Shown here: positions 2,306 through 52,856 of the stretch, piece by piece | How positions within the stretch are numbered: position 1 is the stretch's first letter | Layout: every line of letters starts with the position of its first letter | From: an uncultured Bacteroidales bacterium | GTDB taxonomy: Bacteria > Bacteroidota > Bacteroidia > Bacteroidales > UBA10428 | Direction: 5' to 3' | NCBI GenBank assembly: GCA_963822145.1 | Contig: CAWGGG010000004.1 | Location: 1,659,839-1,723,838 of the forward strand | DNA: 64,000 bases | Position numbers and translations under genes: made by a program | The notes under the pieces: generated by a model | Told to the model about the DNA's origin: nothing | Databases searched by the model: none | Seen by the model: only the letters and a program-made list of their open reading frames with translations

Positions 2306-2321
2306 TTAAAAACTCTAGCAT

Positions 2322-4061: not shown

Positions 4062-4092
4062 TATTTCCATACTGTATAGTATTTTATTCTCT

Positions 4093-4127
4093 AAAGACCC
4101 CGCATATGCGGGGTCTTTACTTTTTTT
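4093..4127 (+). terminator. Rho-independent terminator after SusD
   Basis: Perfect hairpin aaagaccccgca/tgcggggtcttt (4093-4118, 12-bp stem, 2-nt loop) followed by a T7 run at 4121-4127. It starts 32 nt after the SusD stop codon. Confidence 0.75.
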
Positions 4128-4172
4128 ATATATTTACAGGATTTCAATAAATACCTGTAATATTAGCTGAGC

Positions 4173-16961: not shown

Positions 16962-16983
16962 CTTCAACTGCGCTCAGTGTGAC
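16962..16983. repeat. Copy of the dispersed motif (cttcaactgcgctcagtgtgac)
   Basis: Matches 40792-40813 (cttcgactccgctcagtgtgac) with 2 mismatches, plus shared flanks aatgcac... and ...tgYtgtt. It contains the stop codon of 16974-18641. Confidence 0.5.
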
Positions 16984-21600: not shown

Positions 21601-22240
21601 AATAACCTGCTGCTTCCTTGGGAAAATCCGGGAATTGCTTTTGGATCATTTCAAGATGTTCCAGGGCTTTATCGGTTTCTCCCTTCTGGATATAGATTTC
21701 CGTGAGATTCAGCCGTGGCACTAAATTCCCGGGCGCTTTCTCAACCAGCTTAAGCATGTATTCTTCACGCAATTGCCGTGAGGCTTCATCCGCTTGTGTG
21801 GCATAAACCTCGGTAAGATCATAAAGCACCTTAACATGATCGGGAGAAGATTTAAGCGCTTCCTGGAGCTGTGCAATAGCCGCTTCAGGTTTATCTTCCA
21901 TCTTATAGACAGTCGCCAGGATCAGCCTGATGTCAGCATCTTTGGGATCAATTTTCAGACCCTTTAACAGTTGTTCCTCTGCCTCAGGGTACCGGGCCAT
22001 CCTCAGGTATACCAGCCCCAGGTTGGCATATCCAAGTTTTTCCCTGGGAGCCAGTTCAATAAACCTTAAAAACTGCTGCTCCGCTTCTTCATCTTTAAAC
22101 TCCTCCAGGTAAGCCAGACCCAGGGTTTTGATGGTCATCAGATCGGTGGATTTCTGCTTGTCCTTTTCTGCAGGGTTTTTACAGCCTGACTGCAATAACA
22201 TGCAGAGTGCTATCAGAAGGATGGTTTGTAGTGTTTTCAT
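18674..22240 (-). CDS. TPR + FG-GAP/VCBS + ASPIC/UnbV lipoprotein with about 420-aa uncharacterised C-terminal extension (1188 aa)
   Basis: Lipobox (LLQSGC). TPR-like N-terminal third. Repeats DFDSDGDIDLY, DYDNDGFLDLY, DLDHDGDLDIF, DFDEDGDIDFI and others. UnbV-like GIGAKVEMRSG...VHFGIG...IRITWTNG, followed by a long extra region starting GSCPFLYTWNGSQYVF. Confidence 0.85.
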   Translation of the reverse strand: MKTLQTILLIALCMLLQSGCKNPAEKDKQKSTDLMTIKTLGLAYLEEFKDEEAEQQFLRFIELAPREKLGYANLGLVYLRMARYPEAEEQLLKGLKIDPKDADIRLILATVYKMEDKPEAAIAQLQEALKSSPDHVKVLYDLTEVYATQADEASRQLREEYMLKLVEKAPGNLVPRLNLTEIYIQKGETDKALEHLEMIQKQFPDFPKEAAGYYDKTISLLKKHDKDNGIIQFTIFHNYLKVTSPYQAGIVDLKGPGGSLIGFPLITFDQQSTSQLAENESILEVIRFAEVSASAGLDIIPAGSQAQNRGTENTAHVAAADFDSDGDIDLYAGSFNPVSDTYKHYLLINEMGRFKDITAEAGINHTGKEYDACFADYDNDGFLDLYVVKDGGDVLYRNAGQGNFEEVSNKALAGIKTGGNKALFFDLDHDGDLDIFEAGSSPNLLLRNNADGTFTEQAAKMGISGSGDVGRDAAFGDFDEDGDIDFIVVNEKTGCILYSNQRQGIFKDVTEKSGLKSAGGNSAIAVGDYDNDGYLDVFIVSDNGGSSELFRNLRNGSFERVSKGMEVFLPLRQGKVYDAAFLDFDNDGYIDLMVAGSSGTEGKGLFMFHNNGKGGFTDVSNLLPAEVKSGRQIAVFDYNDDGDLDLLIAGLNGGISLFRNDGGNNNHYVKMKLVGLKAGSAKNNHFGIGAKVEMRSGDLYQTTVVTDPNVHFGIGSRAKTDVIRITWTNGVPQNIFSPGTDQALIEAQTLKGSCPFLYTWNGSQYVFAKDILWRSALGMPLGIMGGNTAYAFAEASDDYIRIPGEMLKPNKGSYSIQVTSELWETIYFDKLQLVAVDHPDSVDIYVAEQFSPPPFPGYQVYQVGRKQVPVSARDSRGNDVLSFISEKDDNYLAGYKPAKYQGITEMKDLILDPGRLSGSKTLFLFLNGWIFPTDASINVALSQSGNLTVMPPVIQVVNRKGEWETVIDNPGFPMGKDKTVIADLTGKFLSGDHRIRIRTNMDINWDYVFFSDEVSSAPVKSTVLDPVSADLHYRGFSDTYRKGGRYGPHWFDYAVVDKDTRWRDLTGNYTRYGDVTTLLREADNQYIISNAGDETSVTFDANILPELKNGWKRDFLIHSVGWVKDGDLNTAHGNTVDPLPFHGMKSYPPGAKDYYPADPVLQRYNREYNTRVVTTEGYLDALKEMKIK

Positions 22241-22272: not shown

Positions 22273-22300
22273 GTCATGTTGAGCGGAGTCGAAACATGAC
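22273..22300. repeat. Hairpin copy of a dispersed TTCGACTCCGCTCA motif
   Basis: gtcatgtt-gagcggagtcga-aacatgac: 8-bp stem, 12-nt loop, overlapping the stop codon of 22300-23400. The core is shared with 16962-16983 and 40792-40813. Confidence 0.55.
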
Positions 22301-23400
22301 TAGAATCCTGACCCCTTCACCTCCTCTGGCCATCCGTTTTTAATGACCATCAGCTTACAAGAACCCGTCCGATTCCCTTTGTCGTCAAACTTAATTTGTC
22401 CGGTAACCCCTTCAACCTGTATTTCTGACAAGGCCTGCTGAATTTTTTCACGGTCCGGACTGCCGGAAATTCTGATGGCTTCTATAAGGACGTTCATTCC
22501 ATCAAAGGCATATGCAGCAACTCCGCCCGGCATTCTACCATAGGTTTTCTGATAGGCCTGATTGAAAATCCGGCTTTTTGTTATTGAAGACATGGAAGGG
22601 ACCAATAACAGATTGTCAAACTCATGCAATTCCTGCACGGATAATGCATCCTCATTCAGAATCGACAGGGAGCCAAAAAGGGTTTGGTTCATTTTCCTTT
22701 GCCTGAGCAGCCTGACTATTTTTAATGAAACGGAAGGCTGGCAAAACAAAATGATCGCATTGATTTCAGATTTATTAATATGGTCCGCTAAAGCATTTAG
22801 ATTTGTGCTATAATTATTGAAAAGAAATTGCAGGGGCTCATTCTTACCTGACTCCCGAATTTTCTGCAAATAGTTTTTTAATGCCATGTTTGAATCATAA
22901 GTCTGATCCGAAATGACAGCTACCCTGATGATTTTTCTATTATTGTATATTTCATCAATCAATGCATCTGCCTGTTGGCGGTCAGTTGGCACACAGTTAT
23001 AGAACCAGGGGACAAAAGCCTGGGAAAGTGTCGGATCGGATGACCAGGCAGAAACCAAAACAACCGTTGATTTGGTGGCTGCCTGTTCCACAAGGTGAGC
23101 ATTTCGGCCATCATGGGATCCCAGCAGCGCCCATACATTCTCTTCAAAGATGAGGGATACTGCTTGTTTGGACCCAGTCCCCCAGGGTCCTTCCATGCTT
23201 TTTACATGAAGCTGAAACAGCCGGCCTTTTAAGCCCCCTTCTTCATTGGCCATTTTAATAGCCAGTTCTGCACCCTGCTTTGCGGCCAAAGAAGTTTTGT
23301 CCTGGACTAAAAGACCTATTTTTACGGGTTCGGTTTTTTGGGCTGGTAGTGAGAAAGCAAGGAAGATCAGGAAGGATATGAGGGGAATCTTAGAATGCAT
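22300..23400 (-). CDS. Periplasmic binding protein, LivJ/Leu-Ile-Val-binding (type I PBP) family, secreted
   Basis: Likely start is ATG 23400 (MHSKIPLISFLIFLAFSLPAQ signal); the ORF track extends to 23478. LivJ-like layout: VKIGLLVQ...GAELAIKMANEEGGLKGR...LLGSHDG. No ABC permease or ATPase genes are nearby. Confidence 0.72.
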   Translation of the reverse strand: MHSKIPLISFLIFLAFSLPAQKTEPVKIGLLVQDKTSLAAKQGAELAIKMANEEGGLKGRLFQLHVKSMEGPWGTGSKQAVSLIFEENVWALLGSHDGRNAHLVEQAATKSTVVLVSAWSSDPTLSQAFVPWFYNCVPTDRQQADALIDEIYNNRKIIRVAVISDQTYDSNMALKNYLQKIRESGKNEPLQFLFNNYSTNLNALADHINKSEINAIILFCQPSVSLKIVRLLRQRKMNQTLFGSLSILNEDALSVQELHEFDNLLLVPSMSSITKSRIFNQAYQKTYGRMPGGVAAYAFDGMNVLIEAIRISGSPDREKIQQALSEIQVEGVTGQIKFDDKGNRTGSCKLMVIKNGWPEEVKGSGF

Positions 23401-23508
23401 GGTTTTTACTACGAGGTTGTGAAACATCCTCACAGAGGATGAATTATGGTGGAAACTTGAACGAATAAGATCATACAACCCTGAAGGGGTGGAATAATTC
23501 TACGATTA

Positions 23509-24372
23509 TTATAAAATTTCTCTGCCAACAGCCAATGCAATCTTTTTCAGATCCTTCATTAATTGTTCAAATTCAGGCAGGCTGATCGATTGCTGTCCGT
23601 CACAAAGCGCTTCTTCGGGCTTATAATGAACCTCCATAATAAGACCATCAGCTCCGGCTGCCACGGCGGCTTTGGCCATGGTAGGTACCATCCACCGGAG
23701 TCCTGTGCCATGACTGGGATCCACAATTACAGGAAGATGGCTGAGATGTTTTAACATGGGCACGGCACTTAGATCAAGGGTATTCCGGGTGGAGGTTTCA
23801 AAGGTCCGTATGCCTCTTTCACACAATACTACCTGTTCGTTGCCCTGTCTCAGGATATATTCGGACGCCAGCAGGAATTCTTCAATGGTAGCCATCATGC
23901 CCCGCTTCAACAAAACAGGTTTACGGGTCATCCCCACTTCTTTCAGCAGCGGGTAATTCTGCATGTTGCGTGATCCCACCTGAAGCATATCGGCATACCT
24001 GCTGACAACTTCAATTTGCCGGGTATCCATGACTTCCGTTACGACCGGCAAACCCGTTCTGATGCTGATCTCATGAAGCATTTTTAAGCCTTCTTCCCCA
24101 AGCCCCTGGAAGCTGTATGGTGAAGAACGCGGCTTAAAGGCACCCCCTCTGAGTATTTTCGCACCGTTTTTCCTGACGGAAACTGCTGTTTCAGCTAATT
24201 GTTCCATGCTCTCCACCGCGCAGGGGCCTGCAATAATGATCACTTCAGAGCCTCCTATTACAGCATCTTTAACCTTGACCAGTATGGGGTCCGGTTTTGT
24301 TTTTTTATTTGTTTTCATGGGAGCCAAGCATTCAATAATTTCCTGGTCGCTGTTGATTTTTGTTTCCATCAT
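23509..24372 (-). CDS. 3-deoxy-7-phosphoheptulonate (DAHP) synthase, type I-beta (KDO8PS-like) family
   Basis: [57 protein letters not shown] and [10 protein letters not shown] are all hallmark I-beta DAHPS segments. No signal peptide. Confidence 0.88.
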
Positions 24373-24410: not shown

Positions 24411-25700
24411 TCATTGTAATTCCTTTTTATAGGGAGGCGCAGGCGAAAACTCAAATTTGCCGTTACTGATTTTTGCCAGATAGATGGGCCTAATATTGTT
24501 CCAGGTCGCATCAAATACCATCTTTCCAGAAGCTCCCTCATATCCCTGGAATGTTTTCAAGTCAGTGAGGACATCGCGGATCAGGACACGATTGAGCCCT
24601 GCCTTTTTTATGGACTCAATGATCAGGTTCATTCCATCATAGGCGTGCACGGCAAAAACGTCAGGCTCCATTCCAAAGCGCTTTTTGTAGTTCAACCTGA
24701 ATGCTGCCAGTTTTGGATCTTTTGAATCGGGATTATATTGACAGGTGGTCATAATTCCATCAGCCAGCTTTCCGGCAATACTCAGGAATTCAGGATTTAC
24801 GATCCTGTCGGAACAGAAGACCGGCTGATTCATGCCCATCTTACGTAAATCCTTGAGAATCAAGGCAGATTCCTTTGGATTTCCCCATATTATAATAGCA
24901 TCCGGTTTTGTATCCTTTATCCGCTGCAGTTGCTCAGTAAATACCGTTTCACCATCTTTGAAACGCTCCTCGATAATAATGGGATAACCCAAACGGGTAG
25001 CGGTTTTATTAAAATGAACGACTCCCACCCTGCCATAACGGTTATTTACCCTGATCACAGCAACCCTGGAATGGCTGTTAAGTTCGAAAATGTAATTTGC
25101 CAGTGCATAACAACTTTGCCGGTCATCGGGAATGACTCTTATCACCCAGGGAATATTGGTCTCAGTAAAGGTAGGATCGGGGTCACCGGTACAAACCATC
25201 GGTATTTCCAGTTTGAGAGTGGCACGAATGGCCACATGGGATACAATATCATCAATTGAACCCAGCCAGGCCCAGACTCCCTCATCGTCCATCTTCACCA
25301 CCTCGTTGGCAGCCGCACCCCAAAGTCCGACATCGTTATGGATCATCATTTTATAAGGAATACCCTTGTACCCGCCTTTTTTGTTGGCCTCCTCAATGGC
25401 CAGCGTGGCCCCCTGGAGCATCTGCTTACCGTAATCAACAATGATCGATCCCTCAAGAGGCCCGAGAAAACCTATCCTGACTTCCTTAAGGTTGGTGGGT
25501 GGCGGTATTTCACGTCCGGCCCCGTAAAACTGCATGGGAGTAAGAAAATGGTATTTGTAGGCCTTCTGGTATTTATCGTAGGCAACGTATGTTTCCGGAA
25601 CATTTCCATAGTTATCGCCATATTGTTGCCCTGAAGTCATTGAAATGGCAAAGAACATCAGCACTAAAGATGTTAAAACTGACTTTACGGTTGGTTTCAT
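24411..25700 (-). CDS. Periplasmic binding protein, LivJ-like (type I PBP) family, secreted
   Basis: Likely start is ATG 25700 (MKPTVKSVLTSLVLMFFAISMTSG signal). VRIGFLGPLEG...GATLAIEEANKKGGYKG...WLGSID fits the LivJ-like fold. Second orphan PBP in the cluster. Confidence 0.72.
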   Translation of the reverse strand: MKPTVKSVLTSLVLMFFAISMTSGQQYGDNYGNVPETYVAYDKYQKAYKYHFLTPMQFYGAGREIPPPTNLKEVRIGFLGPLEGSIIVDYGKQMLQGATLAIEEANKKGGYKGIPYKMMIHNDVGLWGAAANEVVKMDDEGVWAWLGSIDDIVSHVAIRATLKLEIPMVCTGDPDPTFTETNIPWVIRVIPDDRQSCYALANYIFELNSHSRVAVIRVNNRYGRVGVVHFNKTATRLGYPIIIEERFKDGETVFTEQLQRIKDTKPDAIIIWGNPKESALILKDLRKMGMNQPVFCSDRIVNPEFLSIAGKLADGIMTTCQYNPDSKDPKLAAFRLNYKKRFGMEPDVFAVHAYDGMNLIIESIKKAGLNRVLIRDVLTDLKTFQGYEGASGKMVFDATWNNIRPIYLAKISNGKFEFSPAPPYKKELQ

Positions 25701-25741
25701 ATCCATTGTTATTATTTCTATTAGCAATCAGTATAAACAAA

Positions 25742-26929
25742 TTAATTGATCACTTCTCCGCGGCTTAAACCTTTGGAAGTTGCCACCCATATGACATCAC
25801 CTTCTGCATCGGCATTAATTACAAAGCTATGGGCGATGGAAGGAGATATCGGAATCTCTTTTTTCTCATTTCCGGAAGTGATGATCGCCACCCCGCTGGT
25901 GTTGTTTTCATTCCGTTTATAGGTAACCCAGGTCGTACCATCAGTAGTGCTTAATCCTTTATCCGTACAAGCATAGGCAACTCTCCCGTTAACCTGCACA
26001 AAGTTTATGAAATTGCTGGCCAGTCCGCTGTCATGATCAAAGTATCCCTTCCAGTTCTTGCCATCGTACCTGCAAAAGCCAAAGTAGGAGGATACCCAGA
26101 GAACGCCGTTGGCCCAGGCGGTAGCTGTAGTAATATCATGAACAGGTCCGTCATCGGGAAGGAGATCTATCTCCATAAAGCCATCAGGATCAACATAATC
26201 CCTGAAATGCTTGGTTTCCTTGTTATATTCAATTATACCTCCACCCCAGGCTGCAATGAAGATCTTCCCCTGTCCGGCTGAAAGCGCATAGGTCCAGGGT
26301 TCATGCATCGGAGCATTCATTTCGGTGAAGATTTCCCATTCCTTAGTATAGGTGTCATAATGGCCTGCACCGCCCCCTGTGGCCATCCAAACATCCTTAC
26401 CGTCGCATACTACATTGTAAACAAGGTCGTTGGGCATGCCGCTGTTCATCTGGGTGAAAGTTTCAAACTTCCCGGATGACCATCGGTTCAACCCGCCTAG
26501 GGTTCCGATCCAAACATCACCCGTAACCGGGCTGACATCAACCGAAACTACGCCATTATGTGCCAGTCCGTCTTTGGTGGTATAGGTTTTCCATTTGCCG
26601 TTCTCATAAACTGCCAGGCCATGGTGAGTGCCAACCAGCACGCGATCACCATCGATCTTAACCGAGTAAACCTTATCGGAAGGGAGTCCGTCTTGCGTGG
26701 TGAAATTCCGCCAGTTGCCGTATACCGGCATGCCATTGGCCTCTTTTATGGAGGTAGTGGCTGAAGGCCCGGCAACATAATCGCTGTCTGAAGAAGATGA
26801 TTTTTCCGACGGCGGCCTCCCGGTCCCGGATTGGCCCTTTTCCGGTTTTTTTACAAACAATACAGCCACTACTATAATAGCTACAACAACCAGTGCTGCA
26901 ATTGAATATTGGAGAATTCTTGATTTCAT
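25742..26929 (-). CDS. Membrane-anchored beta-propeller protein with two-component-regulator-propeller (Reg_prop)-type repeats, no kinase domain
   Basis: N-terminal TM helix, then a Ser-rich linker. Repeats of the type DGLPSDKVYSVKIDGDRVLVGTHHGLAVYENGKWKTY / DGLAHNGVVSVDV..GDVWIGTLGGLNRW. Confidence 0.68.
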   Translation of the reverse strand: MKSRILQYSIAALVVVAIIVVAVLFVKKPEKGQSGTGRPPSEKSSSSDSDYVAGPSATTSIKEANGMPVYGNWRNFTTQDGLPSDKVYSVKIDGDRVLVGTHHGLAVYENGKWKTYTTKDGLAHNGVVSVDVSPVTGDVWIGTLGGLNRWSSGKFETFTQMNSGMPNDLVYNVVCDGKDVWMATGGGAGHYDTYTKEWEIFTEMNAPMHEPWTYALSAGQGKIFIAAWGGGIIEYNKETKHFRDYVDPDGFMEIDLLPDDGPVHDITTATAWANGVLWVSSYFGFCRYDGKNWKGYFDHDSGLASNFINFVQVNGRVAYACTDKGLSTTDGTTWVTYKRNENNTSGVAIITSGNEKKEIPISPSIAHSFVINADAEGDVIWVATSKGLSRGEVIN

Positions 26930-26958: not shown

Positions 26959-28998
26959 TTAATGGTTTATTACAGAGGCTTCTGCTGGTTTATCAGCTTC
27001 TTCTTCATATTCGGGCGAGCGTAATGATTTGAGATATTCTATCAGGTTGTTGAGGTCAATTTTCGTAAGATCATTTAAAGCGCCATGACGCTCATCCTTG
27101 CCGTAAATTGTCCATATCTCCTCGAGTGTTGCTGCTCTGCCGTCGTGCAGGTAAGGCGCCGAAGCATATATATTGTTTAAATGGGGTGTATCAAATAAGA
27201 TGGAATCGTCGGTTGCTGCCAGTGTTCCTACATCCGCGGGTTGCAGATTTGTATAATACGGAGGCGGATGACAGGTAATGCAACGATTTTTAACTGGAAT
27301 TTCCTGACCGTAATTATTATGTGTGCGCTCAAAAATAGCCTTGCCACTTTGCTGTGCTTTGGTTAATTTTCCGCCGGGATTGTATTGAAGATTTGGCGGA
27401 TAGGGAATCCCGGTGAGGATATAGGACACCAGTGCATCGAGTTTGTCGTAACTAAAGGGTTCGGTTCGGGTTAGTACGGTTGAAAAACGCATGCCGTCCT
27501 GCTTGTAAACCGTCTGGTTCTTACCGTTCCATTTAAAAGGAGGTGTTTCTGAAATATCGCGGAGTGACTGGGTATTGGTAATGTTCCGGCCCATGTCCTT
27601 CGATGCCATATTATACACAAGACCGTCTTCATGCACATCCGGATGACAGGTATAGCATGCATATTGAGTCTGGAAAGTGCCTCCTGCATTATTCAGTATT
27701 CTTCTTCCTTTCCGGGCTACTGTCACCCTGCGTGGCCCGCCCAGATCAATGGTCTTTTCCATTTCCAGTGTTGCGGTATTAATAACAGCAATCCGGTCCT
27801 CCAGATGTTCAGCCACATATAACAGTTTTCCGTCAGATGACATGGCAAGCCCTTTCGGATTCGCTCCCGTGGGGATACGTTTGATCACATAACGGCTGCT
27901 GATGCCGAGATGATTGGCATAGATCTTCAGCTCATCATCAGATGATTCTGCCAGCAAGGTCCGGATGGCATCGATGTCAAGCACGGAAATAAAATCCACT
28001 CCTGAACTGGAGATAAAAGCTCGTTTACCGTCGGGTGTTATGGCAACATCGAACGGATCGGGGTAATACGCATTGGGTTCGTCCAGCAGCAGCTGTACCG
28101 TCCTTCCTCCGGGTTTTAATTCAATGATTCCAAAACCGTGAGTCATCATCCATCCCCTGTCTACCTGAATGGTGGGCATATTGTTCTTGGGACGTATCAG
28201 GGGAAATATGGCCAGATCGCATGATGGTGTAAATGCTATGTTCTCCATCATGTAGGCCGACCTGATGCCCCTGCGTTCCACGATCCTCCGTTTGTCATCG
28301 TTCACCACGGTCAATTCGCAGATCACCGTATCATCATAGGGGCGGCCCATGGTCCGCCGGCTGGTGACAAACAGGGAACTTCCGTCAGGAGTCGCGCCAA
28401 TTCCGGTCGGATTATTACCGGCAGTGAGCCTTTTTTCCTCTTCTTTGGTTTTCAGGTTGATCACCGAAAGGTCAGAAGTATAGGAATTCACTGCATACAG
28501 ATACTTTCCGTCAGCACTCAGGGCCAAACCTGCCGGACCACCGCCGGTCCTCAGGGTATCCTTTACCTCAAATCCGGAAAGATCAATGACGGATATATTA
28601 TCTGACCATTGGTTGCTGACATAGGCCGTGCTTTCATCTTTATCAAGAATAACACTGTGGGGCTGATCACCTACCTTGATTTTACGGATAACCTTTTGGT
28701 TTTCAGTATCTACTACCAGCAAAGCATCGCCTTCCTCGGCAACTACGTATAACTTTTTACCATCCTTAGTAATAGCCAGGTTGAAAGGAGAATAGTAATC
28801 CGCATTGACCATTTTTGCCAGGAGTCCGCTTTTCTGTTTATACAAATGGCAATTATAACAGGCAAGCGGGTGATCCTCCACAGCCGTTTGGTAGTTCACA
28901 TGTGCCCTGGCCAGTTTATGTGCTTTCGGATATATCAGTGAAACAGCCAGAATAAGTATGCCTGCTGTGGTTAAAAGAATATAGTGATGTCTTTTCAT
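26959..28998 (-). CDS. Tri-heme protein: N-terminal CxxCH + YVTN-type beta-propeller + C-terminal di-heme cytochrome c peroxidase/MauG-like domain
   Basis: Signal anchor. CYNCH at 28846-28860, CYTCH at 27643-27657, CITCH at 27268-27282. The last is followed by the CCP-typical FDTPHLNNIYASAPYLHDG. The middle has repeated D.K.LYV.N..S..ISVID-type propeller blades. Confidence 0.8.
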   Translation of the reverse strand: MKRHHYILLTTAGILILAVSLIYPKAHKLARAHVNYQTAVEDHPLACYNCHLYKQKSGLLAKMVNADYYSPFNLAITKDGKKLYVVAEEGDALLVVDTENQKVIRKIKVGDQPHSVILDKDESTAYVSNQWSDNISVIDLSGFEVKDTLRTGGGPAGLALSADGKYLYAVNSYTSDLSVINLKTKEEEKRLTAGNNPTGIGATPDGSSLFVTSRRTMGRPYDDTVICELTVVNDDKRRIVERRGIRSAYMMENIAFTPSCDLAIFPLIRPKNNMPTIQVDRGWMMTHGFGIIELKPGGRTVQLLLDEPNAYYPDPFDVAITPDGKRAFISSSGVDFISVLDIDAIRTLLAESSDDELKIYANHLGISSRYVIKRIPTGANPKGLAMSSDGKLLYVAEHLEDRIAVINTATLEMEKTIDLGGPRRVTVARKGRRILNNAGGTFQTQYACYTCHPDVHEDGLVYNMASKDMGRNITNTQSLRDISETPPFKWNGKNQTVYKQDGMRFSTVLTRTEPFSYDKLDALVSYILTGIPYPPNLQYNPGGKLTKAQQSGKAIFERTHNNYGQEIPVKNRCITCHPPPYYTNLQPADVGTLAATDDSILFDTPHLNNIYASAPYLHDGRAATLEEIWTIYGKDERHGALNDLTKIDLNNLIEYLKSLRSPEYEEEADKPAEASVINH

Positions 28999-29000
28999 AA

Positions 29001-30437
29001 TTATTCCAATTCAACTTCTTTTTCAGTGACTTCGGTGATATGTACGGGTATATTAACCGGGTCCTTTTTTACTGACAGGGGTACATTGTTTTCAGGCGCC
29101 AGTTCGTGATCTTCGTGACAACCCACACACCCTCTTCTTTCATTAGGCCGTATCCATATCCAGGAGCAAGGACCGTTTACCACCTTACCGTCCTCATCCA
29201 GGGTCTGTATCCGGAAAGGGGTGTCGGCCATCGCCTTTAAATAAAATGACCCGTCCTCTTCAACCGTAATGATCCCCAGGGAAGAATTCAACCCGAGCAC
29301 TTCAATCTTGCTGGCCTTTTTACCAGATGACTGAGTTTCCGCGAAGCCGGGGTCAAGGATATGAATATCCTGGCAAAGCAGCAATCCGGTTTTTACCCCC
29401 ATGTCCACCTCGCTCGGCAGCTTTTTGGGACGGGCCCTTACTTCAACCACCAATGCATCCAGGATATCATGATCGGCAGAAGCAAAGACAGGCTGACCAA
29501 GAACCTTTTTTTTCGGATCAAATTCGTAAAGGGCGAACCGTTCGGTATCAGCCTTTCGGTATGTCACCAGGTACTTTCCTGAGGAATGCACTGACACTGT
29601 GAGAAAATCGCCTTTGAGGCCGGAGGTGAGATTGATGCGTGAATTTAGCGGCCGGTTATAGCTAATTGAGACCATGTGCCCTGATCCGGAGTGTGCGCTG
29701 TCAGTTTCGATAAAAACGATTTTCCCGTCTGCAGTTTCCGCGGCGCGTCCTAATAATGACGTATTTTCCGATCCTTTGTAAAACATGTCCGCTTTTGTTC
29801 CGTCGGGACGCATGACCATCATTAACTGTTCTTCCGGAGCAGGAAATAATTGCCGGCTGACAGTCAAAAGGCGGCCATCATGCAACGTGCTGGATGCGAA
29901 ATAGCAGTTCGGGCTATAAGTGATCCGCTGCATACCTGAACCATCCAGGTTACCGGCATAGAGTGAATATCCTGCCTTCAGCGAATCATTTGCCAGTATT
30001 TTACTGTATAATAATCGGTTACCTGGCAGATAAACAGGATCCGTACAGTGATCACCCGATGTGGTGATCTGTCTTACCGATGAATTCCCAAGATCCATCT
30101 CCCATATCTGCCATACATCTCCCTCCTTCTGCTGCCCGGCAAACAGCATGGATTTACCATCATAGGAGATATCGGGTGAGCAGGCTGAATAAAACCCCGC
30201 GGTAAGCAACTTTGGTGATTTTCCAGGATTGTTTGGATGCACCGCCAGCAGACGGGCTCCGGGAATATACCGCCAGGATGCGCCTGAGATGTAATCGGGA
30301 TTACCGGCTTTTTCTGCACATTCAGTTATGATAATCATATCCGTCACCGGTTTGCCCTTACAGGATAACATGATAAGACCTGAGAATCCAACAGTTACCA
30401 GGCTTGCGAGTGAGATAACAAGTAATCTTAGCTTCAT
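29001..30437 (-). CDS. TolB/PD40-like beta-propeller lipoprotein with C-terminal c-type heme motif
   Basis: ATG 30437 gives MKLRLLVISLASLVTVGFSGLIMLSC (lipobox); the track start 30449 is TTG. SPDISYDGKSMLFAG...WQIWEMDL is a PD40-like blade. CVGCH is encoded at 29115-29129. Confidence 0.65.
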   Translation of the reverse strand: MKLRLLVISLASLVTVGFSGLIMLSCKGKPVTDMIIITECAEKAGNPDYISGASWRYIPGARLLAVHPNNPGKSPKLLTAGFYSACSPDISYDGKSMLFAGQQKEGDVWQIWEMDLGNSSVRQITTSGDHCTDPVYLPGNRLLYSKILANDSLKAGYSLYAGNLDGSGMQRITYSPNCYFASSTLHDGRLLTVSRQLFPAPEEQLMMVMRPDGTKADMFYKGSENTSLLGRAAETADGKIVFIETDSAHSGSGHMVSISYNRPLNSRINLTSGLKGDFLTVSVHSSGKYLVTYRKADTERFALYEFDPKKKVLGQPVFASADHDILDALVVEVRARPKKLPSEVDMGVKTGLLLCQDIHILDPGFAETQSSGKKASKIEVLGLNSSLGIITVEEDGSFYLKAMADTPFRIQTLDEDGKVVNGPCSWIWIRPNERRGCVGCHEDHELAPENNVPLSVKKDPVNIPVHITEVTEKEVELE

Positions 30438-30445
30438 GCAACTGA

Positions 30446-32152
30446 TCAATTAGGTTCTGTTATAGTAAGGATCTGGTTGGCTTTGGTATTATCCAGGGTC
30501 TGGGTTTTTCCGGAAGGCCATTTTATTTCGATCTTTTCTACCACTTCATTCTTTGCCAGGCCAAAATGCATCCTCGGATCATTCTGGGATAAATAGCCAA
30601 CGGTACTTTTCTTCTGGGCTGTCTGGGTTTTGCCTCCGGATGTTATTTTAACAATGGCGCCTATGCCATCGTGGTTACTTGAGGTGCCAACCAACTTAAG
30701 GATCAGCCAGTTATTCTGGTTACCCTTGTTATTGCGTAAAAACATCGCGCGGTTGTTGAGGTTGACAATAAAAACATCCAGATCCCCATCATTATCATAA
30801 TCTCCAATGCAGGTACCGCGTCCGACATACTCCTGATGGAAATATGCTCCCCTTTCCAGTGAAATATCCGTAAACTTACCGTTACCCAGGTTTTCAAAAA
30901 TCTGGTCCTCATGTCCGTACAGATGCTTCAGGGCGCCATTGGTTTTATAAATATCCATGTCCATATCATTGTCATAATCAATAAAGGAGGACGACCAGCC
31001 CACAAATTGAGCTGCCTGGGAGGAAATCCCTACCGGATTGGCTTTATCTGTGAATACACCATTACCCAGATTTTCATATAATGAACAGTAGGTATCATCT
31101 GAAACAAATATGTCCATCAGCCCGTCTCCGTTATAATCAGCAAAATCAACCGACATGCTTACAGTAGCTTCACCACCCTGACTGAAAGCAGTGCCCGACA
31201 TCGTTCCGATATCGGTGAACTTTTTGCCCGCTTCGTTATGCCAGAGGTAATTCAAGGTATGATCGTTGGCAACGTAAATGTCAACAAAGCCATCATTGTC
31301 CACATCGGCTGCCCCAACGCCCATAGCCCTGCCATCCATATCAATGATGCCCATGGCCTGTGTGACGTCTTTAAAAGTACCGTCTCCGTTATTATGATAC
31401 AATACGTCTGGTTCGGCCTCGTAAGCCATTGGGGGCGGGAAACCGTCGGGAGCATAAAAATATTTGTAATCAGGGTCAAATTCAAGATAATTGCCCACAT
31501 AAAGATCGAGGAAACTGTCATTATCGTAATCTAACCATACGGCACCTACGCTGCAGGTATGATCTCCAGCAACACCGGCCTTTTCGGTGACATTGGTGAA
31601 AGTCCCGTTTCCTTTGTTCCTGTAAAGCACATTATGGCCATAATTGCAAACATACAGATCGGGATATCCATTGTTGTCATAGTCCCCTACTGAAACGCCC
31701 ATGCTGTACCAGGGTCCGCCCACACCGGCTTTTCTGGTCACATCCTCAAAAGTGCCGTCACCCCTGTTGCGATAGAGACGATTGCCCGGAAGCTGGTCAG
31801 GCTTTTCGCTTTTGGTGAAGCCTTCGATCCAGGTGCCACTGGTTACATAAATATCAATGTATCCGTCCTGGTCATAATCAAGAAATGCCGTACCACCACA
31901 ACTTGATTCAACGATGTTCAGCAGTTCGGTGCCACCAATCGAATGGACAAAATCCAACCCGATCTGTTCTCCTATTTCCTGGAAGTAATCATCATTTGCC
32001 GCCGGAAGGGTTGCTGCCGGTTTCTTAGAGCCAGAGGATCTATTGTCGGACTGACATCCGGACAGGACCAGCAACATAACGAACAGGAGAACATATAGCC
32101 TCCCGATGACATTTCTGATACCCGCACTTTTTTTCAACCTTAAGCAAACCAT
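30446..32152 (-). CDS. FG-GAP/VCBS + ASPIC/UnbV lipoprotein (CRTAC1-like), 568 aa
   Basis: Lipobox (VLSGC). Repeats DYDQDGYIDIY, DYDNNGYPDLY, DVDNDGFVDIY, DYDNDGDLDVF. UnbV signature GIGAIVKITSGGKTQ...YLSQNDPRMHFGL...IEIKWPSG. Confidence 0.85.
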   Translation of the reverse strand: MVCLRLKKSAGIRNVIGRLYVLLFVMLLVLSGCQSDNRSSGSKKPAATLPAANDDYFQEIGEQIGLDFVHSIGGTELLNIVESSCGGTAFLDYDQDGYIDIYVTSGTWIEGFTKSEKPDQLPGNRLYRNRGDGTFEDVTRKAGVGGPWYSMGVSVGDYDNNGYPDLYVCNYGHNVLYRNKGNGTFTNVTEKAGVAGDHTCSVGAVWLDYDNDSFLDLYVGNYLEFDPDYKYFYAPDGFPPPMAYEAEPDVLYHNNGDGTFKDVTQAMGIIDMDGRAMGVGAADVDNDGFVDIYVANDHTLNYLWHNEAGKKFTDIGTMSGTAFSQGGEATVSMSVDFADYNGDGLMDIFVSDDTYCSLYENLGNGVFTDKANPVGISSQAAQFVGWSSSFIDYDNDMDMDIYKTNGALKHLYGHEDQIFENLGNGKFTDISLERGAYFHQEYVGRGTCIGDYDNDGDLDVFIVNLNNRAMFLRNNKGNQNNWLILKLVGTSSNHDGIGAIVKITSGGKTQTAQKKSTVGYLSQNDPRMHFGLAKNEVVEKIEIKWPSGKTQTLDNTKANQILTITEPN

Positions 32153-32235: not shown

Positions 32236-32243
32236 CAAATATA
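32236..32243 (-). promoter_or_regulatory. Possible -7 promoter box (TATATTTG) for the 32152->14607 cluster
   Basis: The minus strand reads TATATTTG, fitting TAnnTTTG, 84 nt upstream of ATG 32152. No convincing -33 element was found. Confidence 0.25.
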
Positions 32244-32554: not shown

Positions 32555-33922
32555 TCAAACGGTTGGGAGTAATATGAAAACTGTAGTCCCTTTTCCGATT
32601 TGTGAGGACAGGTTCAGGCTTCCATTATGCATTTTAATGATCTGATTAACAAGGGGAAGTCCAATACCACTACCTGATATGGAATGGGTATTGCTGCCCC
32701 GGTAAAAGGGTTCAAAGACTTTATTAATATCATCCTCAGGAATGCCGATACCTTTATCGGTAAACTGCACTTTAATCCATTTCTCAAAAGGTTCGATCCT
32801 GATGCTTACCATGTGATCGGCTGAGTACTTGCAGGCATTATCAATAAGGTTGGAAACAGCCACTTTGAGCAGGTATTCATCACCCGCCACGGTCATCTGA
32901 TCTGAATCAGTTAGAGCATTGTCAATGGCAATAGTAACCTGGTATTGGTTATTGAATCGCTTGATCTCTTCCTGGGCCTGCCAAAGGATTTCATCCAACC
33001 TGATCATTTTATTAAAATTCAATGGCCCTTCAGCACTGGTGCGTGCAATGAGCAGCAACCTGTTGGAGAGGTCGATCAGCGATTTGATGTCATCCAGCAC
33101 AGATACCAGGGCCGCCTTGTACTCCGCGGTTGACCTGTCCTTCATGACCAGCACCTCCAGTTGGCCATTAATGGAGGTAAGGGGCGTGCGGAGTTCATGC
33201 GAGGCATTTGCAATAAAATCCTTCTGCATGGCAAATGACTTCTCCAAACGCTCAAGCACCCGGTTGAAGGTATTGGCAAGTCTGCTGATCTCGTCCCTGC
33301 CATTGCCCTCAGGAACCCTCAGGTTCAGACTGGTTATTGTAATCTTTTCCACCTGGTTGACCACATCGGAAATCGGTTTAAGGGCCCTTCCTGAATAAAA
33401 CCATCCTGCAATGGCAAACAGCAGCAAACTGAACAGAGAGGTCAGGGTGAGTATCATCCTCAGCTTTTTAAGGTGCGACTGGCCGGCCGTATCAGTTGCA
33501 GCTGCAATGACCACAAAACGGTCTAATTTCGCTGTGTATAACGTTCCCATAACTTCATAAGAACCCTGCTTATAAAAAATTCTTTCAAACATCCTCACCC
33601 GCTCGAGGATATCATTTCTGATATCAATTTCCGATTTTTCATCCGAGCTGTAAATGATATCGTTGCGGTAATTAAGAATAATGACCTTTTCGTTTTGCAG
33701 CTTAACCGGGTTATCCTTTTCAAACCTCCTGACACGCTCGGCATCAATCACGTTGGCATCCAGGAGAAATTTGGCCGTGCTTCTGGCATTGTTCCTGAGC
33801 CGGTTATAGAAGTCCTCCTGCCGGAAATTTGCAGAAAAGAAGTAAATGGCAAATGACACGAGGATCATGATCATACCTCCCAGCAGGAGGAACTGCAATG
33901 TCAAACGGGTCCTGATCTGCAT
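32555..33922 (-). CDS. Sensor histidine kinase (2 TM + HAMP + HisKA + HATPase_c)
   Basis: Likely start is ATG 33922, 1 nt after the RR stop. H-box NASHELRTPLT. Also N-box and G-boxes (DNACKY, DKGIGI, GSGIGL). Confidence 0.88.
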   Translation of the reverse strand: MQIRTRLTLQFLLLGGMIMILVSFAIYFFSANFRQEDFYNRLRNNARSTAKFLLDANVIDAERVRRFEKDNPVKLQNEKVIILNYRNDIIYSSDEKSEIDIRNDILERVRMFERIFYKQGSYEVMGTLYTAKLDRFVVIAAATDTAGQSHLKKLRMILTLTSLFSLLLFAIAGWFYSGRALKPISDVVNQVEKITITSLNLRVPEGNGRDEISRLANTFNRVLERLEKSFAMQKDFIANASHELRTPLTSINGQLEVLVMKDRSTAEYKAALVSVLDDIKSLIDLSNRLLLIARTSAEGPLNFNKMIRLDEILWQAQEEIKRFNNQYQVTIAIDNALTDSDQMTVAGDEYLLKVAVSNLIDNACKYSADHMVSIRIEPFEKWIKVQFTDKGIGIPEDDINKVFEPFYRGSNTHSISGSGIGLPLVNQIIKMHNGSLNLSSQIGKGTTVFILLPTV

Positions 33923-33923
33923 G

Positions 33924-34601
33924 CTATGAATCTCTGAAAATATAACCAAATCCAACCTTGGTCTGGATCAGCTTTTTATCAAATCCTTTATCGATCTTCT
34001 TGCGCAGGAAGTTAACATAAACATCCACCACGTTAGTGCCGAAATCAAAAGTAACATCCCATACTTTTTCGGCAATGTCATTCCTCGACAAGACCCGTCC
34101 GCTGTTCCTCATAAAATACTCAAGAAGGGAGAATTCCTTGGCAGTCAGCTCAATAGATGTACTGCCTCTCCGGGCGACTTTTCTATTCAGGTCAAGCTCC
34201 AGTTCCCCTACGATCAGCTTGTTCGTGGTGTCCTGCGTCTGATCTCCTTTTTTCAACAATACCTTGACCCTGGCAAGCAATTCTCTGAATTCAAATGGCT
34301 TAACAAGATAGTCATCGGCACCTGCCTCAAATCCTGTAATTTTATCATCGGTTGTACCCAAGGCCGTGAGCAACAGCACCGGCAGGTGGTCATTCATCAT
34401 TTTGAGTCTTTTGCACAGTTCCAGACCGCTGATGCCGGGCAGTATGATATCCAGGATGAAGAGATCATATTTATTCTGCTGTGCCAATTTCTCCGCAAAT
34501 ACACCATCATAAGCCACATCAGCCTCATAGTGGTTTTCTTCAAGTCCCATCTTCAAAAACGATGCTACCTTCGGTTCGTCCTCTACAATTAATATCTTCA
34601 T
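33924..34601 (-). CDS. OmpR/PhoB-family response regulator
   Basis: Receiver domain (MKILIVEDE...DLFILDIILPGISG...LLLTA..., K in YLVKPF) plus a winged-helix DNA-binding domain (LTAKEFSLLEYFM...GFGY). Confidence 0.92.
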   Translation of the reverse strand: MKILIVEDEPKVASFLKMGLEENHYEADVAYDGVFAEKLAQQNKYDLFILDIILPGISGLELCKRLKMMNDHLPVLLLTALGTTDDKITGFEAGADDYLVKPFEFRELLARVKVLLKKGDQTQDTTNKLIVGELELDLNRKVARRGSTSIELTAKEFSLLEYFMRNSGRVLSRNDIAEKVWDVTFDFGTNVVDVYVNFLRKKIDKGFDKKLIQTKVGFGYIFRDS

Positions 34602-51920: not shown

Positions 51921-51963
51921 ATCATGAAAGTTTATCAGATACTGGGGGATAGACGCCTTGAAA

Positions 51964-52848: not shown

Positions 52849-52856
52849 GCCTGATG

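Follow-up and report, generated by a model that had tools for sequence, protein, structure and literature searches.

Two neighbouring genes of an uncultured Bacteroidales bacterium, here denoted A and BC, were described in an initial annotation as an alpha plus fused beta-gamma-like pair of the hydrazine synthase (HZS) type, which raises the question whether such a pair makes hydrazine, as in anammox bacteria, or serves some other chemistry. The genes lie within a 64-kb stretch of DNA (hereafter, the window) that is itself a new sequence, its proteins sharing 92-94% identity with those of the closest relative. The proposed open reading frames at 29001..30437(-) and 26959..28998(-), 2 nt apart, were both recovered by ORF calling. 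The reading frame of gene A can be opened at a TTG codon (29001..30449(-)) or at the ATG at 30437, whose Met is shared by the relatives in the alignment and which yields a protein of 478 aa; gene BC encodes 679 aa. The stop codon of A (29001-29003) and the ATG of BC at 28998 are separated by 2 nt, and the two genes are probably translationally coupled. Conservation of the pairing, set beforehand as a test, was found in 74 of the 80 related Bacteroidales genomes, with most of the misses at contig ends and a median gap of 2 nt (70 loci measured). Translation places the four CXXCH motifs of the two proteins exactly where they had been annotated, and in alignments of 49 sequences each (relatives at 52-94% identity) every Cys and His of these motifs is invariant. 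Given this invariance and the E-values of the best family matches (3e-19 to 3e-63), the similarity and the heme motifs are far beyond chance.

Family, PDB sequence and fold matches all identify the product of gene A (29001..30437(-)) as an HZS-alpha-like lipoprotein that consists of a TolB-like beta-propeller, an HZS_alpha 'middle' domain and a single c-type heme motif. The predicted lipoprotein signal is recognizable as an N-terminal lipobox-like ...MLSC, with S25 and C26 at least 90% conserved in the 49-sequence alignment, and a TolB/PD40-like signal was detected for the annotated blades. The profile search for an HZS_alpha-type domain returned Pfam PF18582 (E = 3.2e-19; 69.7 bits against a cut-off of 26.6) at residues 372-442 (29112..29324(-)), with the heme motif at the end of the match. 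The top NCBIfam match is hydrazine_alpha (3.4e-30; 105 bits, equivalog cut-off 800) and the top PDB sequence match is 5c2v_A (3.6e-32), residues 388-441 of A aligning with chain residues 507-560. Comparison with the hydrazine synthase crystal structure gave the same result: for the predicted structure of A (pLDDT 78.7), 5c2v_A is the best fold (E = 1.4e-20, TMq 0.71), followed by TolB (2e-10, TMq 0.46). The heme motif CVGCH (residues 437-441, 29115..29129(-)), invariant in the 49-sequence alignment, corresponds in the alignment to CSGCH, the heme alphaI motif of HZS alpha (His587), and conforms to the pattern P[NG]ExRGC[IV]GCH of the alpha-like family; A terminates 37 residues past this sole CXXCH. 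Among 131 alpha-like representatives, the His+4 position is variable (E/Q/K/S/D) and the stretch after the heme motif has no His, Met or Tyr that is conserved, which fits a heme that is probably His-ligated in the normal way and open on the distal side. His466, located 25 residues past the motif, is nearly invariant in the Bacteroidales clade and is not kept across the wider alpha-like family.

Gene BC (26959..28998(-)) encodes a fusion of HZS-beta-like and HZS-gamma-like parts that carries three c-type heme motifs and, at its N-terminus, a membrane helix. Its NCBIfam matches are hydrazine_BC (3.3e-63; 214 bits, equivalog cut-off 1250), hydrazine_beta (1.5e-60) and hydrazine_gamma (1e-21), and its PDB sequence matches 5c2v_B (1.9e-57) and 5c2v_C (5.7e-21). 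The annotated signal anchor corresponds to a hydrophobic helix at the N-terminus, directly followed by an extra, invariant heme motif, CYNCH (residues 47-51, 28846..28860(-)), that is itself preceded by invariant H33, D42 and H43. The YVTN repeats, detected as TIGR02276 in four stretches (E = 1e-36), make up a seven-bladed propeller (residues 63-409, 27772..28812(-)), and its kinship with HZS beta holds in sequence and in fold: the alignment with 5c2v_B (chain residues 8-350; E = 1.9e-57) is full length, and the model, with pLDDT mostly >90, matches HZS beta with E = 1.5e-30, TMt 0.90 and 28% identity. The propeller loop 269-300 is conserved (RPKNN.P..Q...G).

The HZS-gamma-like, or CCP/MauG-like, di-heme domain (BC residues ~422-660, 27019..27735(-)) was delineated by sequence matches; its model is of low confidence (pLDDT 30-50), so that conclusions on this domain are drawn from sequence. 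It scores 68-77 bits against HZS gamma and at most ~28 bits against MbnH, CCP or MauG, which places it outside the canonical peroxidases; the best non-HZS matches are to MbnH (TIGR04039, 28.5 bits; 6e1c, 27.6 bits), and the PF03150 match (24.0 bits) falls under the Pfam cut-off of 25.6. The invariant CYTCH (residues 448-452, 27643..27657(-)) aligns with CASCH of 5c2v_C, and its heme is the predicted counterpart of HZS heme gammaI and of the CCP peroxidatic heme, whereas that of CITCH (residues 573-577, 27268..27282(-)), likewise invariant, is by alignment the putative counterpart of heme gammaII and of the CCP electron-transfer heme. The annotated FDTPHLNN...APYLHDG segment is present in the translation. 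In the 49-sequence alignment, Trp490, Gln500 and Glu513 never vary, and Tyr632 reaches at least 90% conservation; the latter falls opposite the Met of 'ETMG' in CCP (1iqc) and opposite the Tyr of 'DIYS' in MbnH (6e1c). Invariant His638 aligns with the His of 'DMHG' in HZS gamma and could be the distal ligand of a gammaII heme that is bis-His instead of His/Tyr. From these positions we infer the heme ligation (His/Tyr, or bis-His via His638) and the distal pocket; the CCP/MauG/MbnH-like hallmarks of this domain are an addition of the present analysis.

Also new is a conserved envelope cluster of 8-10 genes surrounding the pair, for which occurrences were counted in 80 loci of related Bacteroidales genomes. 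The gene immediately preceding A, found there in 79 of 80 loci, encodes a 568-aa CRTAC1-like FG-GAP/UnbV_ASPIC lipoprotein (30446..32152(-); Pfam FG-GAP_3 1.6e-58, UnbV_ASPIC 5.4e-23; human CRTAC1 9etn_A 6e-23). On the other side of the pair, a 395-aa membrane-anchored propeller (25742..26929(-); 72/80) resembles, according to its Pfam Reg_prop and PDB matches (4a2l, 1.2e-17; 3v9f, 2.3e-13), the periplasmic sensor domains of Bacteroides hybrid two-component systems. Two orphan periplasmic substrate-binding proteins of the Peripla_BP_6 family, a (438 aa, 24411..25727(-)) and b (392 aa, 22300..23478(-)), are each found in 67 of 80 loci, with no ABC permease or ATPase gene close to a; between their genes sits that of a stand-alone, cytoplasmic type I-beta DAHP synthase (287 aa, 23509..24372(-); 64/80), which scores 448 bits with NF006421 (cut-off 335) and 395 bits with TIGR01361 (cut-off 268). 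There follow a TPR + FG-GAP/UnbV_ASPIC lipoprotein of 1188 aa (18674..22240(-); 62/80, most misses being contig or flank ends) and, 32 nt further downstream in the same orientation, another CRTAC1-like FG-GAP/ASPIC protein, of 555 aa (16974..18641(-)), before whose position the compared flanks of the relatives end. A two-component system (32555..34601(-); histidine kinase 32555-33955, response regulator 33924-34601), predicted to be of the CusS/CusR-HprS/HprR heavy-metal type (TIGR01386, 207 bits, cut-off 293; TIGR01387, 237 bits, cut-off 279), precedes the cluster in roughly half of the related genomes (38-39/80 loci). A Rid-like gene is present in the clusters of most relatives. Altogether, the window encodes four FG-GAP/ASPIC proteins, one directly after a SusC/SusD pair.

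In the family, PDB-sequence and fold rankings, HZS alpha, beta and gamma lead by a clear margin over TolB, generic YVTN propellers and CCPs, and the description as an alpha plus fused beta-gamma-like pair stands, A being closest to HZS alpha and BC to the HZS beta-gamma fusion, beta and gamma. Since all these domains belong to very large superfamilies and generic TolB, YVTN and CCP matches exist, one might suspect that a TolB-like lipoprotein, an unspecialized YVTN propeller and a standard cytochrome c peroxidase have come to lie side by side by accident, without working together, but all three parts match HZS subunits first, by wide margins, the same pairing occurs in other phyla (PMC12758564, PMC10732223), and the conserved gene order and 2-nt spacing refute this notion, which has a negligible probability. 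A functional hydrazine synthase, which would turn these Bacteroidales into cryptic anammox bacteria, has been suggested by a cold-seep survey (PMC11828985) for the 'previously undescribed HzsA' of ten phyla. The significant HZS_alpha match, the top rank of HZS in the fold search, the adjacency of the alpha gene to a fused beta-gamma gene (a fusion also present in Scalindua) and the transcription of related genes in sediments (PMC11828985) speak for it; nevertheless, it appears highly improbable, with scores 6-8 fold under the NCBIfam equivalog cut-offs (105/800 and 214/1250 bits), a gap in the alpha-Tyr591/Ser590 region and no heme alphaII domain in A. Furthermore, in BC, the gamma-Cys165 position is a gap or Gly502, gamma-Asp168 is replaced by invariant Phe505, and gamma-His144 by invariant Trp490, a Trp typical of CCP/MauG enzymes. 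The 64-kb window contains no hydrazine dehydrogenase, HAO or other anammox genes, in line with the initial annotation. Identical residue losses, including the gap at alpha-Ser590/Tyr591, were reported for clades I-III in PMC12758564, whose authors likewise conclude against a hydrazine synthase. Because the HZS catalytic residues are missing, a chemistry other than hydrazine synthesis, as originally suggested, is likely. Thus, with the homology distant and the HZS-specific catalytic residues absent, we hold with high confidence that A and BC are genuine but very distant HZS homologues, HZS-like and not HZS, and that the gene pair is unusable as an anammox marker.

An HZS-like pair could still act on a protein. 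MauG makes TTQ and MbnH makes the kynurenine-copper site of MbnP, and a maturation enzyme of this type, reaching a high-valent bis-Fe(IV) state via H2O2 or O2, would oxidise a residue of a partner protein, A or a CRTAC1-like protein, to yield a protein-derived cofactor or metal site. The invariant inter-heme Trp490, the placement of Tyr632 at the Tyr of MbnH 'DIYS', the rank of MbnH as best non-HZS match, the adjacent two-component system of copper/heavy-metal type and the strictly conserved neighbouring partner proteins are all compatible with such a role. We nonetheless regard it as unlikely: the domain is much nearer HZS gamma than MauG or MbnH, His638 could signify that the ligation is bis-His and not His/Tyr, genes resembling those for MbnP or MADH are absent from the cluster, and an HZS-type architecture would imply a small-molecule tunnel over long-range hole hopping to a protein. 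Similarly doubtful is the proposal that the hemes are only electron-transfer or structural and that the function of the cluster resides in the FG-GAP proteins, sensor-like propeller and binding proteins, which might, for example, bind or process an envelope or environmental polymer while A and BC supply or remove electrons. The abundance of FG-GAP/ASPIC proteins, one of them next to SusC/SusD, and the likeness of the 395-aa propeller to glycan-sensing domains of hybrid two-component systems would agree with this proposal, as would a six-coordinate A heme, for which His466 could provide the ligand in the Bacteroidales clade, yet this residue is not conserved across the wider alpha-like family. 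Moreover, the catalytic-type Gln and Glu positions of CCPs are kept in the gamma-like domain (manual alignment), and the strong conservation of the HZS beta loop region is unexpected for a passive scaffold.

The explanation that we favor, and to which we give an even chance as a whole, is that A and BC form a two-chain, envelope-anchored, four-heme periplasmic complex homologous to HZS. The export signals on both proteins (the lipobox of A and the signal anchor of BC) and the c-type heme motifs indicate a periplasmic location, and our best guess from these features is a two-site redox enzyme that uses a small oxidant, the mechanistic part being tentative. The entry point for electrons would be the N-terminal heme of BC, close to the membrane, the gammaII-like heme, or both. 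The gammaI-like heme, in a pocket that appears to keep the CCP/MauG hallmarks (inter-heme Trp490, Gln500, Tyr632), would react with the oxidant, most likely H2O2, possibly NO or another N-oxide. The beta-like propeller and its conserved loop would hold the alpha-like subunit against the gammaI-like site; in HZS, the corresponding interface is crossed by a tunnel between the two active-site hemes, and by analogy a similar tunnel may run between A and BC. The heme of A, His-ligated and probably distally open, would then convert the product or oxidise a second substrate, with the CRTAC1-like FG-GAP proteins, the sensor-like propeller and the two orphan binding proteins as conserved accessories. 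Systems of the CusRS/HprRS type sense metals or peroxide, and the one upstream counts in favor of an oxidant mechanism, although it is found in about half of the loci only. Transcription of related Bacteroidota 'hzsA' genes in sediments (PMC11828985) lends further support. Against this mechanism, two large propellers, three CRTAC1-like proteins, two binding proteins and a DAHP synthase are more than a plain peroxidase would require, and H2O2 is scarce in the anoxic habitats from which the host organisms mostly come.

The architecture is already published (PMC12758564, PMC10732223, PMC11828985), the family having been noticed only in 2023-2025. By published description, A and BC match 'clade III' of Hagglund et al. 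2025 (PMC12758564), all five features of which agree with the locus: a fused beta-gamma-like gene preceded by the alpha-like gene, an FG-GAP/CRTAC1 gene that in turn precedes the latter, two substrate-binding-protein genes downstream, an alpha-like protein without heme alphaII and the C-terminus, and one extra heme motif in the beta-gamma-like protein (here, CYNCH). Entries in the hit table of that paper include CAIXCY010000079.1_51 and JADGPT010000008.1_15 (Bacteroidales, Prolixibacteraceae per GTDB), which are on the contigs of our independently recovered loci L025 and L014; its main text describes no sensor-like propeller, DAHP synthase, Rid-like gene, TPR-FG-GAP protein, CusRS-like system or Tyr632/Gln500 features. 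The arrangement in which a fused beta-gamma-like gene immediately follows an alpha-like gene is shared with the hzsA-like and fused hzsBC-like genes of Phycisphaerae UBA1845 (PMC10732223) and with the cold-seep HzsA set, which includes 16 Bacteroidota MAGs, has a Bacteroidales contig as its most abundant hzsA contig and counts such Bacteroidota genes as hzsA (PMC11828985, a 2025 survey). Both studies consider or assert anammox potential, against which the residues described here argue for the present clade; in the Phycisphaerae, hao and nxr genes occur alongside the HZS-like genes, whose blastp scores against Kuenenia HZS are higher (89-163 bits).

Compared part by part with anammox HZS (HzsA/HzsB/HzsC of Kuenenia stuttgartiensis, PDB 5C2V), the pair has the same alpha, beta and gamma components, namely an alpha propeller followed by a middle domain with the heme alphaI CXXCH, a seven-bladed beta propeller with its loop and a di-heme CCP-like gamma domain, as well as the same total of four hemes, at a sequence identity of about 20-28%. 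The beta-gamma fusion order of BC is that of NF052342, and the fusion form is known in Scalindua HZS. The differences are a shorter alpha (478 versus 809 aa) without the heme alphaII cytochrome domain and without alpha-Tyr591, the lipoprotein nature of A, the additional N-terminal heme and membrane anchor of BC, the placement of alpha ahead of beta-gamma, a location in the periplasm rather than the anammoxosome, and the lack of HDH and other HZS partner genes nearby. With the CCP/MauG/MbnH enzymes (PF03150), the gamma-like domain shares two CXXCH motifs ~125 residues apart, the inter-heme Trp (Trp490) with Gln at Trp+10, the TPxLxN...PYxHDG motif and a Tyr at the Met/Tyr ligand position; unlike those enzymes, it belongs to a fusion in which an extra heme and a seven-bladed propeller come first, and no CCP, MauG or MbnH is as near to it as HZS gamma.

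The pair formed by the HZS-alpha-like lipoprotein gene (gene A) and the fused HZS-beta-like and HZS-gamma-like gene (gene BC) is a real, distant homologue of the alpha and fused beta-gamma parts of anammox hydrazine synthase (HZS), given that HZS subunits are the best sequence and fold matches of both products; the family, PDB and fold comparisons thus agree with the alpha plus fused beta-gamma-like pair proposed in the initial annotation. Gene A (29001-30437, minus strand) encodes 478 aa from its ATG, with an in-frame TTG at 30449, and the co-directional gene BC (26959-28998, minus strand) encodes 679 aa. In translation, the A product contains CVGCH (residues 437-441, nt 29115-29129), and BC contains CYNCH (residues 47-51, nt 28846-28860), CYTCH (residues 448-452, nt 27643-27657) and CITCH (residues 573-577, nt 27268-27282), the last followed by FDTPHLNN...APYLHDG. 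The A product has a lipobox-like MLSC, and the N-terminus of BC is a hydrophobic helix. ORF calls and translations accordingly bear out the two ORFs and four heme motifs first reported, along with the 2-nt spacing in the window between the stop of gene A and the start of BC, the lipoprotein character of A and the signal anchor of BC. All Cys and His residues of the four CXXCH motifs are invariant in alignments of 49 relatives of each protein (52-94% identity). The part of BC next to the membrane (residues 24-51, YP..H.WAR.HVNY.TA.EDHPL.C..CH) is conserved, unlike the membrane helix that precedes it. Such a helix with a first heme close behind may recall the quinol dehydrogenases of the NapC/NrfH type; family searches give this segment of BC no support for such a likeness.

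The HZS_alpha domain (PF18582) that was foreseen for gene A is found by Pfam well above the cut-off (E = 3.2e-19, 69.7 bits against 26.6), and the top NCBIfam model is hydrazine synthase alpha (3.4e-30), with TolB far lower. The profile built from A together with its relatives picks up 5c2v_A, the alpha chain of the Kuenenia enzyme, at 3.6e-32 in three collinear stretches, with CVGCH aligned on the heme alphaI motif CSGCH and its His on His587. The anticipated likeness to the HZS structure extends to the AlphaFold model of A (pLDDT 78.7), for which 5c2v_A is the top PDB fold (E = 1.4e-20, TMq 0.71), followed by TolB (2e-10, TMq 0.46). The protein shows the HZS-alpha order of an N-terminal propeller and then a middle domain with the heme alphaI CXXCH. 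A lacks the C-terminal cytochrome c domain that houses the bis-His heme alphaII: its sequence has a single CXXCH and terminates 37 residues past it.

The ligation of the remaining heme of A seems to differ little from the ordinary. In HZS, Tyr591 is the proximal ligand of heme alphaI and His587 binds zinc instead (PMC12607021); in the main text of PMC12758564, a 2-residue gap at Ser590/Tyr591 is described for clades I-III of HZS-like proteins. In A, the residue at His+4 after the heme motif is Glu445, the HMM alignment to 5c2v_A stopping at the His. Across 131 representatives of the wider alpha-like family, this position is occupied variously by E, Q, K, S or D, and the motif is not followed by any conserved His, Met or Tyr, a pattern that fits ordinary His ligation. 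His466 was considered as a conserved axial ligand and rejected, being present only in the Bacteroidales clade and missing from the wider family.

Among NCBIfam models, BC is best matched by that of the HZS beta-gamma fusion (3.3e-63), followed by those for beta (1.5e-60) and gamma (1e-21). The beta chain, 5c2v_B, is covered over 343 of its 352 residues by residues 63-408 of BC (E = 1.9e-57), and the C-terminal domain aligns with the gamma chain, 5c2v_C (5.7e-21), as expected of the HZS-beta-like propeller and gamma-like domain originally proposed. The structural comparison leads to the same assignment, the confidently modelled propeller matching 5c2v_B with E = 1.5e-30, TMt 0.90 and 28% identity. 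A combination of an ordinary cytochrome c peroxidase (CCP) with a generic propeller was rejected since, over the full length, no CCP or YVTN protein scores as high as HZS beta and gamma. HZS beta is a seven-bladed propeller with a tunnel-facing loop, 245-260, that carries a Mg-binding Glu (as described in the main texts of PMC12607021 and PMC12758564, from which the HZS residue roles used here are drawn). The corresponding loop region of BC (RPKNN.P..Q...G, residues 269-300) is strongly conserved, which speaks for a functional arrangement of the subunits as in HZS. The Mg-binding Glu itself falls at Gln278 or Asp/Glu280 of BC, depending on the numbering offset, and is reported in the main text of PMC12758564 as not conserved in the HZS-like clades.

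The AlphaFold model of the gamma-like domain has a pLDDT of 30-50, and conclusions on this domain are drawn from sequence. The residues that are important in HZS gamma are missing or replaced: gamma-Cys165 (chain C126), the third covalent link to heme gammaI, faces a gap or Gly502; gamma-Asp168 (chain D129), the distal, proposed proton donor at heme gammaI, faces the invariant Phe505; and gamma-His144, between the gamma hemes, corresponds to the invariant Trp490, with 'PPFRHEG' of 5c2v_C aligned to 'PPFKWNG' of BC. Searched alone, the domain scores 68 bits with HZS gamma, 27.6 with MbnH and at most 25.7 with any cytochrome c peroxidase; BC reaches 24.0 bits with the CCP/MauG family PF03150, under the Pfam gathering threshold of 25.6, and the same family is among the precomputed matches of many relatives. 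Like the di-heme CCP and MauG proteins, BC has two c-type hemes (C448-H452 and C573-H577) with the invariant Trp490 between them, located 38 residues after the first heme His (39 in a Nitrosomonas CCP fragment). By manual alignment, an invariant Gln stands at Trp+10, as in Nitrosomonas CCP; we take it to match the Gln that has a catalytic role in CCP and MauG. Tyr632, which is conserved to at least 90%, lies opposite the Met of 'ETMG' in CCP (1iqc) and the Tyr of 'DIYS' in MbnH (6e1c); the Met at this position is a heme ligand in CCP, and Tyr takes that role in MauG. Given that the invariant His638, which aligns with the His of 'DMHG' in HZS gamma, could be the distal gammaII ligand in place of Tyr632, the second heme may be ligated by either residue. 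The gamma-like domain thus appears to keep hallmarks of the di-heme peroxidases, MauG and MbnH, including Gln500 and Tyr632.

The gene family is large and nearly all of its members are annotated just as 'YVTN family beta-propeller' or 'hypothetical'. At 90% identity, there are 1,416 clusters for gene A and 2,255 for BC. Clustered at 50% identity, the matches of the A profile number 598 with a limit of E <= 1e-30 and 2,773 when the limit is relaxed to 1e-10, including proteins from Planctomycetota and Terriglobia. The short, one-heme form accounts for 119 of the 131 motif-carrying alpha-like representatives. With each species represented by a single genome in the scan, a relative of A is encoded in at least 233 genomes, and the best 80 of these 233 are all Bacteroidales/Bacteroidia MAGs, from peat, fen, lake, permafrost, groundwater and marine sediments. 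The 10-kb flanks of these 80 loci, examined with the window's own genes as probes, reveal a conserved order: an optional response regulator and kinase, a CRTAC1-like FG-GAP/ASPIC lipoprotein, A, BC, a sensor-like propeller, binding protein a, DAHP synthase, binding protein b and a TPR-FG-GAP/ASPIC protein. A is present in all 80 loci, the CRTAC1-like FG-GAP gene in 79, BC in 74, the sensor-like propeller in 72, both binding proteins in 67, DAHP synthase in 64, the TPR-FG-GAP gene in 62 and the kinase and regulator in 38-39, with absences mostly at contig or flank ends. The pairing of A and BC is accordingly conserved, and the median distance of 2 nt between them (70 loci) suggests translational coupling and fixed stoichiometry.

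Every protein of the cluster carries an export signal except DAHP synthase. The 568-aa CRTAC1-like FG-GAP protein matches human CRTAC1 (9etn, 6e-23), and the 395-aa propeller resembles the sensor domains that hybrid two-component systems of Bacteroides expose to the periplasm. The kinase and regulator (32555-34601, minus strand) are nearest to the heavy-metal-type CusS/CusR and HprS/HprR families and to RppB/RppA, just under the subfamily cut-offs; metal or peroxide are candidate inducers. The best solved relatives of the two binding proteins are binders of branched-chain or aromatic amino acids, with the aromatic-acid binders of R. palustris ranking lower. The stand-alone, cytoplasmic DAHP synthase of type I-beta (23509-24372, minus strand) is encoded between these two exported orphan binding proteins, a placement kept in 64 of the 80 species. 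In 55 of 67 related loci, a Rid/YjgF-like gene lies between the sensor-like propeller and binding protein a; its representative in locus L001 (14726-15301, plus strand, 191 aa) scores 38 bits with TIGR00004 and weakly matches the FkbO/Hyg5 chorismatases (E = 1.7e-5). This gene is missing from the window (25727 to 25742) and from 12 other loci. Taken together, the Rid-like gene and the embedded DAHP synthase hint that the cluster has some link to shikimate or chorismate.

Elsewhere, the window encodes SusC/SusD loci, glycoside hydrolases and transporters. Four CRTAC1-like FG-GAP/UnbV_ASPIC proteins are encoded within the 64 kb, three on the minus strand (16974-18641, 18674-22240 and 30446-32152) and one, of 1097 aa, on the plus strand (4173-7466, within the region 2-7466), directly after a SusC/SusD pair, in a gene order like that of a polysaccharide-utilisation-type locus; we found no functional account of bacterial CRTAC1-like proteins in the literature. 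Two overlapping genes (14607-16903, minus strand) encode a PP-loop Asn-synthase-like protein (442 aa) and a radical SAM protein (323 aa) similar to RaSEA, an archaeosine enzyme (112 bits, cut-off 212). The same pair adjoins the cluster in three related loci (L026, L030 and L033), so a loose link between the two is possible. A lipoprotein-like ORF of 738 aa (38418-40634, minus strand) has no Pfam match at E <= 1e-5. A 225-aa protein with a B12-binding domain and a 294-aa protein with a homocysteine S-methyltransferase domain are encoded separately (51964-53534, minus strand), which resembles a split MetH-like arrangement; if the SDR ORF next to them (51126-52067) begins at its GTG, the overlap amounts to about 100 nt. 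In the 400-nt gap before the cluster, TATATTTG (32236-32243, minus strand) fits the Bacteroidota -7 promoter consensus TAnnTTTG and precedes the start codon (ATG) of the 568-aa FG-GAP gene by 84 nt, the chance expectation for matches in this gap being about 0.1. Counts of sigma-70 promoters, in a scan that leaves out the Bacteroidota promoter types, and of terminators are no different from those in shuffled sequences. No riboswitch or other known RNA was detected in 14000-35000, a sub-threshold SgrS match within a coding region there being taken as chance.

How the pair functions can be approached by weighing several readings against these data. The mere chance adjacency of A and BC is practically negligible, with both genes found together in 74 of 80 loci. 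Genuine hydrazine synthesis, to which the HZS-like architecture might point, is very improbable: A, at 104.6 bits, and BC, at 213.9 with the fusion model, fall 6-8 fold short of the curated whole-protein cut-offs of 800 and 1250 set for the NCBIfam equivalogs, and BC also stays under the cut-offs for beta (205.3 bits, cut-off 560) and gamma (77.3 bits, cut-off 625; models NF052339/40/41/42). These low scores, the lack of the alphaII heme and of gamma-Cys165 and gamma-Asp168, and the replacement of gamma-His144 by Trp490 together indicate that this is not a hydrazine synthase. The 64-kb window contains no nitrogen-cycle, hydrazine dehydrogenase, HAO, other anammox or cytochrome c maturation genes, in accord with the initial annotation as regards hydrazine dehydrogenase and the anammox genes; nor did any anammox gene turn up in the 10-kb flanks of the 80 loci, for which the probes were the window's own genes. 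A protein-modifying enzyme of the MauG/MbnH type is unlikely, as the gamma-like domain scores best with HZS gamma; similarly unlikely is that the hemes only transfer electrons or serve as structure in an envelope system centred on the CRTAC1-like proteins.

We favor a model in which A and BC would form a periplasmic, envelope-anchored complex with four hemes. The entry point for electrons would be the N-terminal heme of BC next to the membrane, the gammaII-like heme or both, and the gammaI-like heme would react with a small oxidant, most likely H2O2, considering the CCP-type pocket and the metal/peroxide-type regulator, although NO or another N-oxide is possible in view of the HZS ancestry. 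The alpha-like heme, positioned by the propeller, would serve as a second catalytic site. A more far-reaching and speculative interpretation, possible yet doubtful, is that the Bacteroidales clade is a living intermediate between CCP/MauG and HZS, that is, a periplasmic heme enzyme with two active sites and a new transformation at the second heme. The first site would be a CCP/MauG-type high-valent or NO-binding heme, and a propeller-gated tunnel would carry a reactive intermediate derived from peroxide or an N-oxide to the second heme, which could perform N-O/N-N chemistry or oxidize an aromatic or amine ligand delivered by the binding proteins. If this is the case, the conserved DAHP synthase and the Rid/chorismatase-like gene would imply a co-substrate derived from shikimate and produced by the cell itself.

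The CCP/MauG features (Trp, Gln and Tyr) within an HZS architecture make the clade a useful model for the origin of HZS from periplasmic heme peroxidase-like proteins; the tightly conserved envelope cluster of 8-10 genes is also a defined target for biochemistry. The case further bears on the correct annotation of 'hzsA' in metagenomes because such genes carry Pfam HZS_alpha and are abundant in Bacteroidales of sediment, peat and lakes. HZS-like enzymes were suggested in 2023 to be a wider family with other substrates (PMC10732223). In 2025, such genes were scored as hzsA, among them those of 16 Bacteroidota MAGs and a dominant Bacteroidales contig, found to be transcribed, and used to infer anammox capacity in ten new phyla (PMC11828985). 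For the Bacteroidales clade, the residue evidence contradicts that inference; in agreement with PMC12758564, it indicates that these genes do not encode hydrazine synthases, and estimates of nitrogen loss drawn from domain matches would therefore be too high.

A search for HZS homologues published in December 2025 (Hagglund et al., PMC12758564) describes, in its main text, clades I-IV of co-located alpha-like and fused beta-gamma-like genes, concludes that key HZS residues are not conserved and offers no function; its table of matches includes genes on the contigs of two of our related loci (L025 and L014), assigned by GTDB to Bacteroidales, Prolixibacteraceae. The pair in the window is a further member of this recently described group, and the surprise itself is already published. 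Relative to the main texts of these papers, the new elements are the full conserved cluster, with the sensor-like propeller, DAHP synthase, Rid-like gene, TPR-FG-GAP protein and CusRS-like system, the 2-nt coupling of A and BC, and the CCP/MauG-like features Tyr632 and Gln500. Compared by its published description, clade III (short alpha and fused beta-gamma) matches the locus in all five described features: an alpha-like gene directly upstream of the fused beta-gamma-like gene, an FG-GAP/CRTAC1 gene upstream of the alpha-like gene, two substrate-binding-protein genes downstream, an alpha-like protein without heme alphaII and the C-terminus, and a beta-gamma-like protein with exactly one extra CXXCH.
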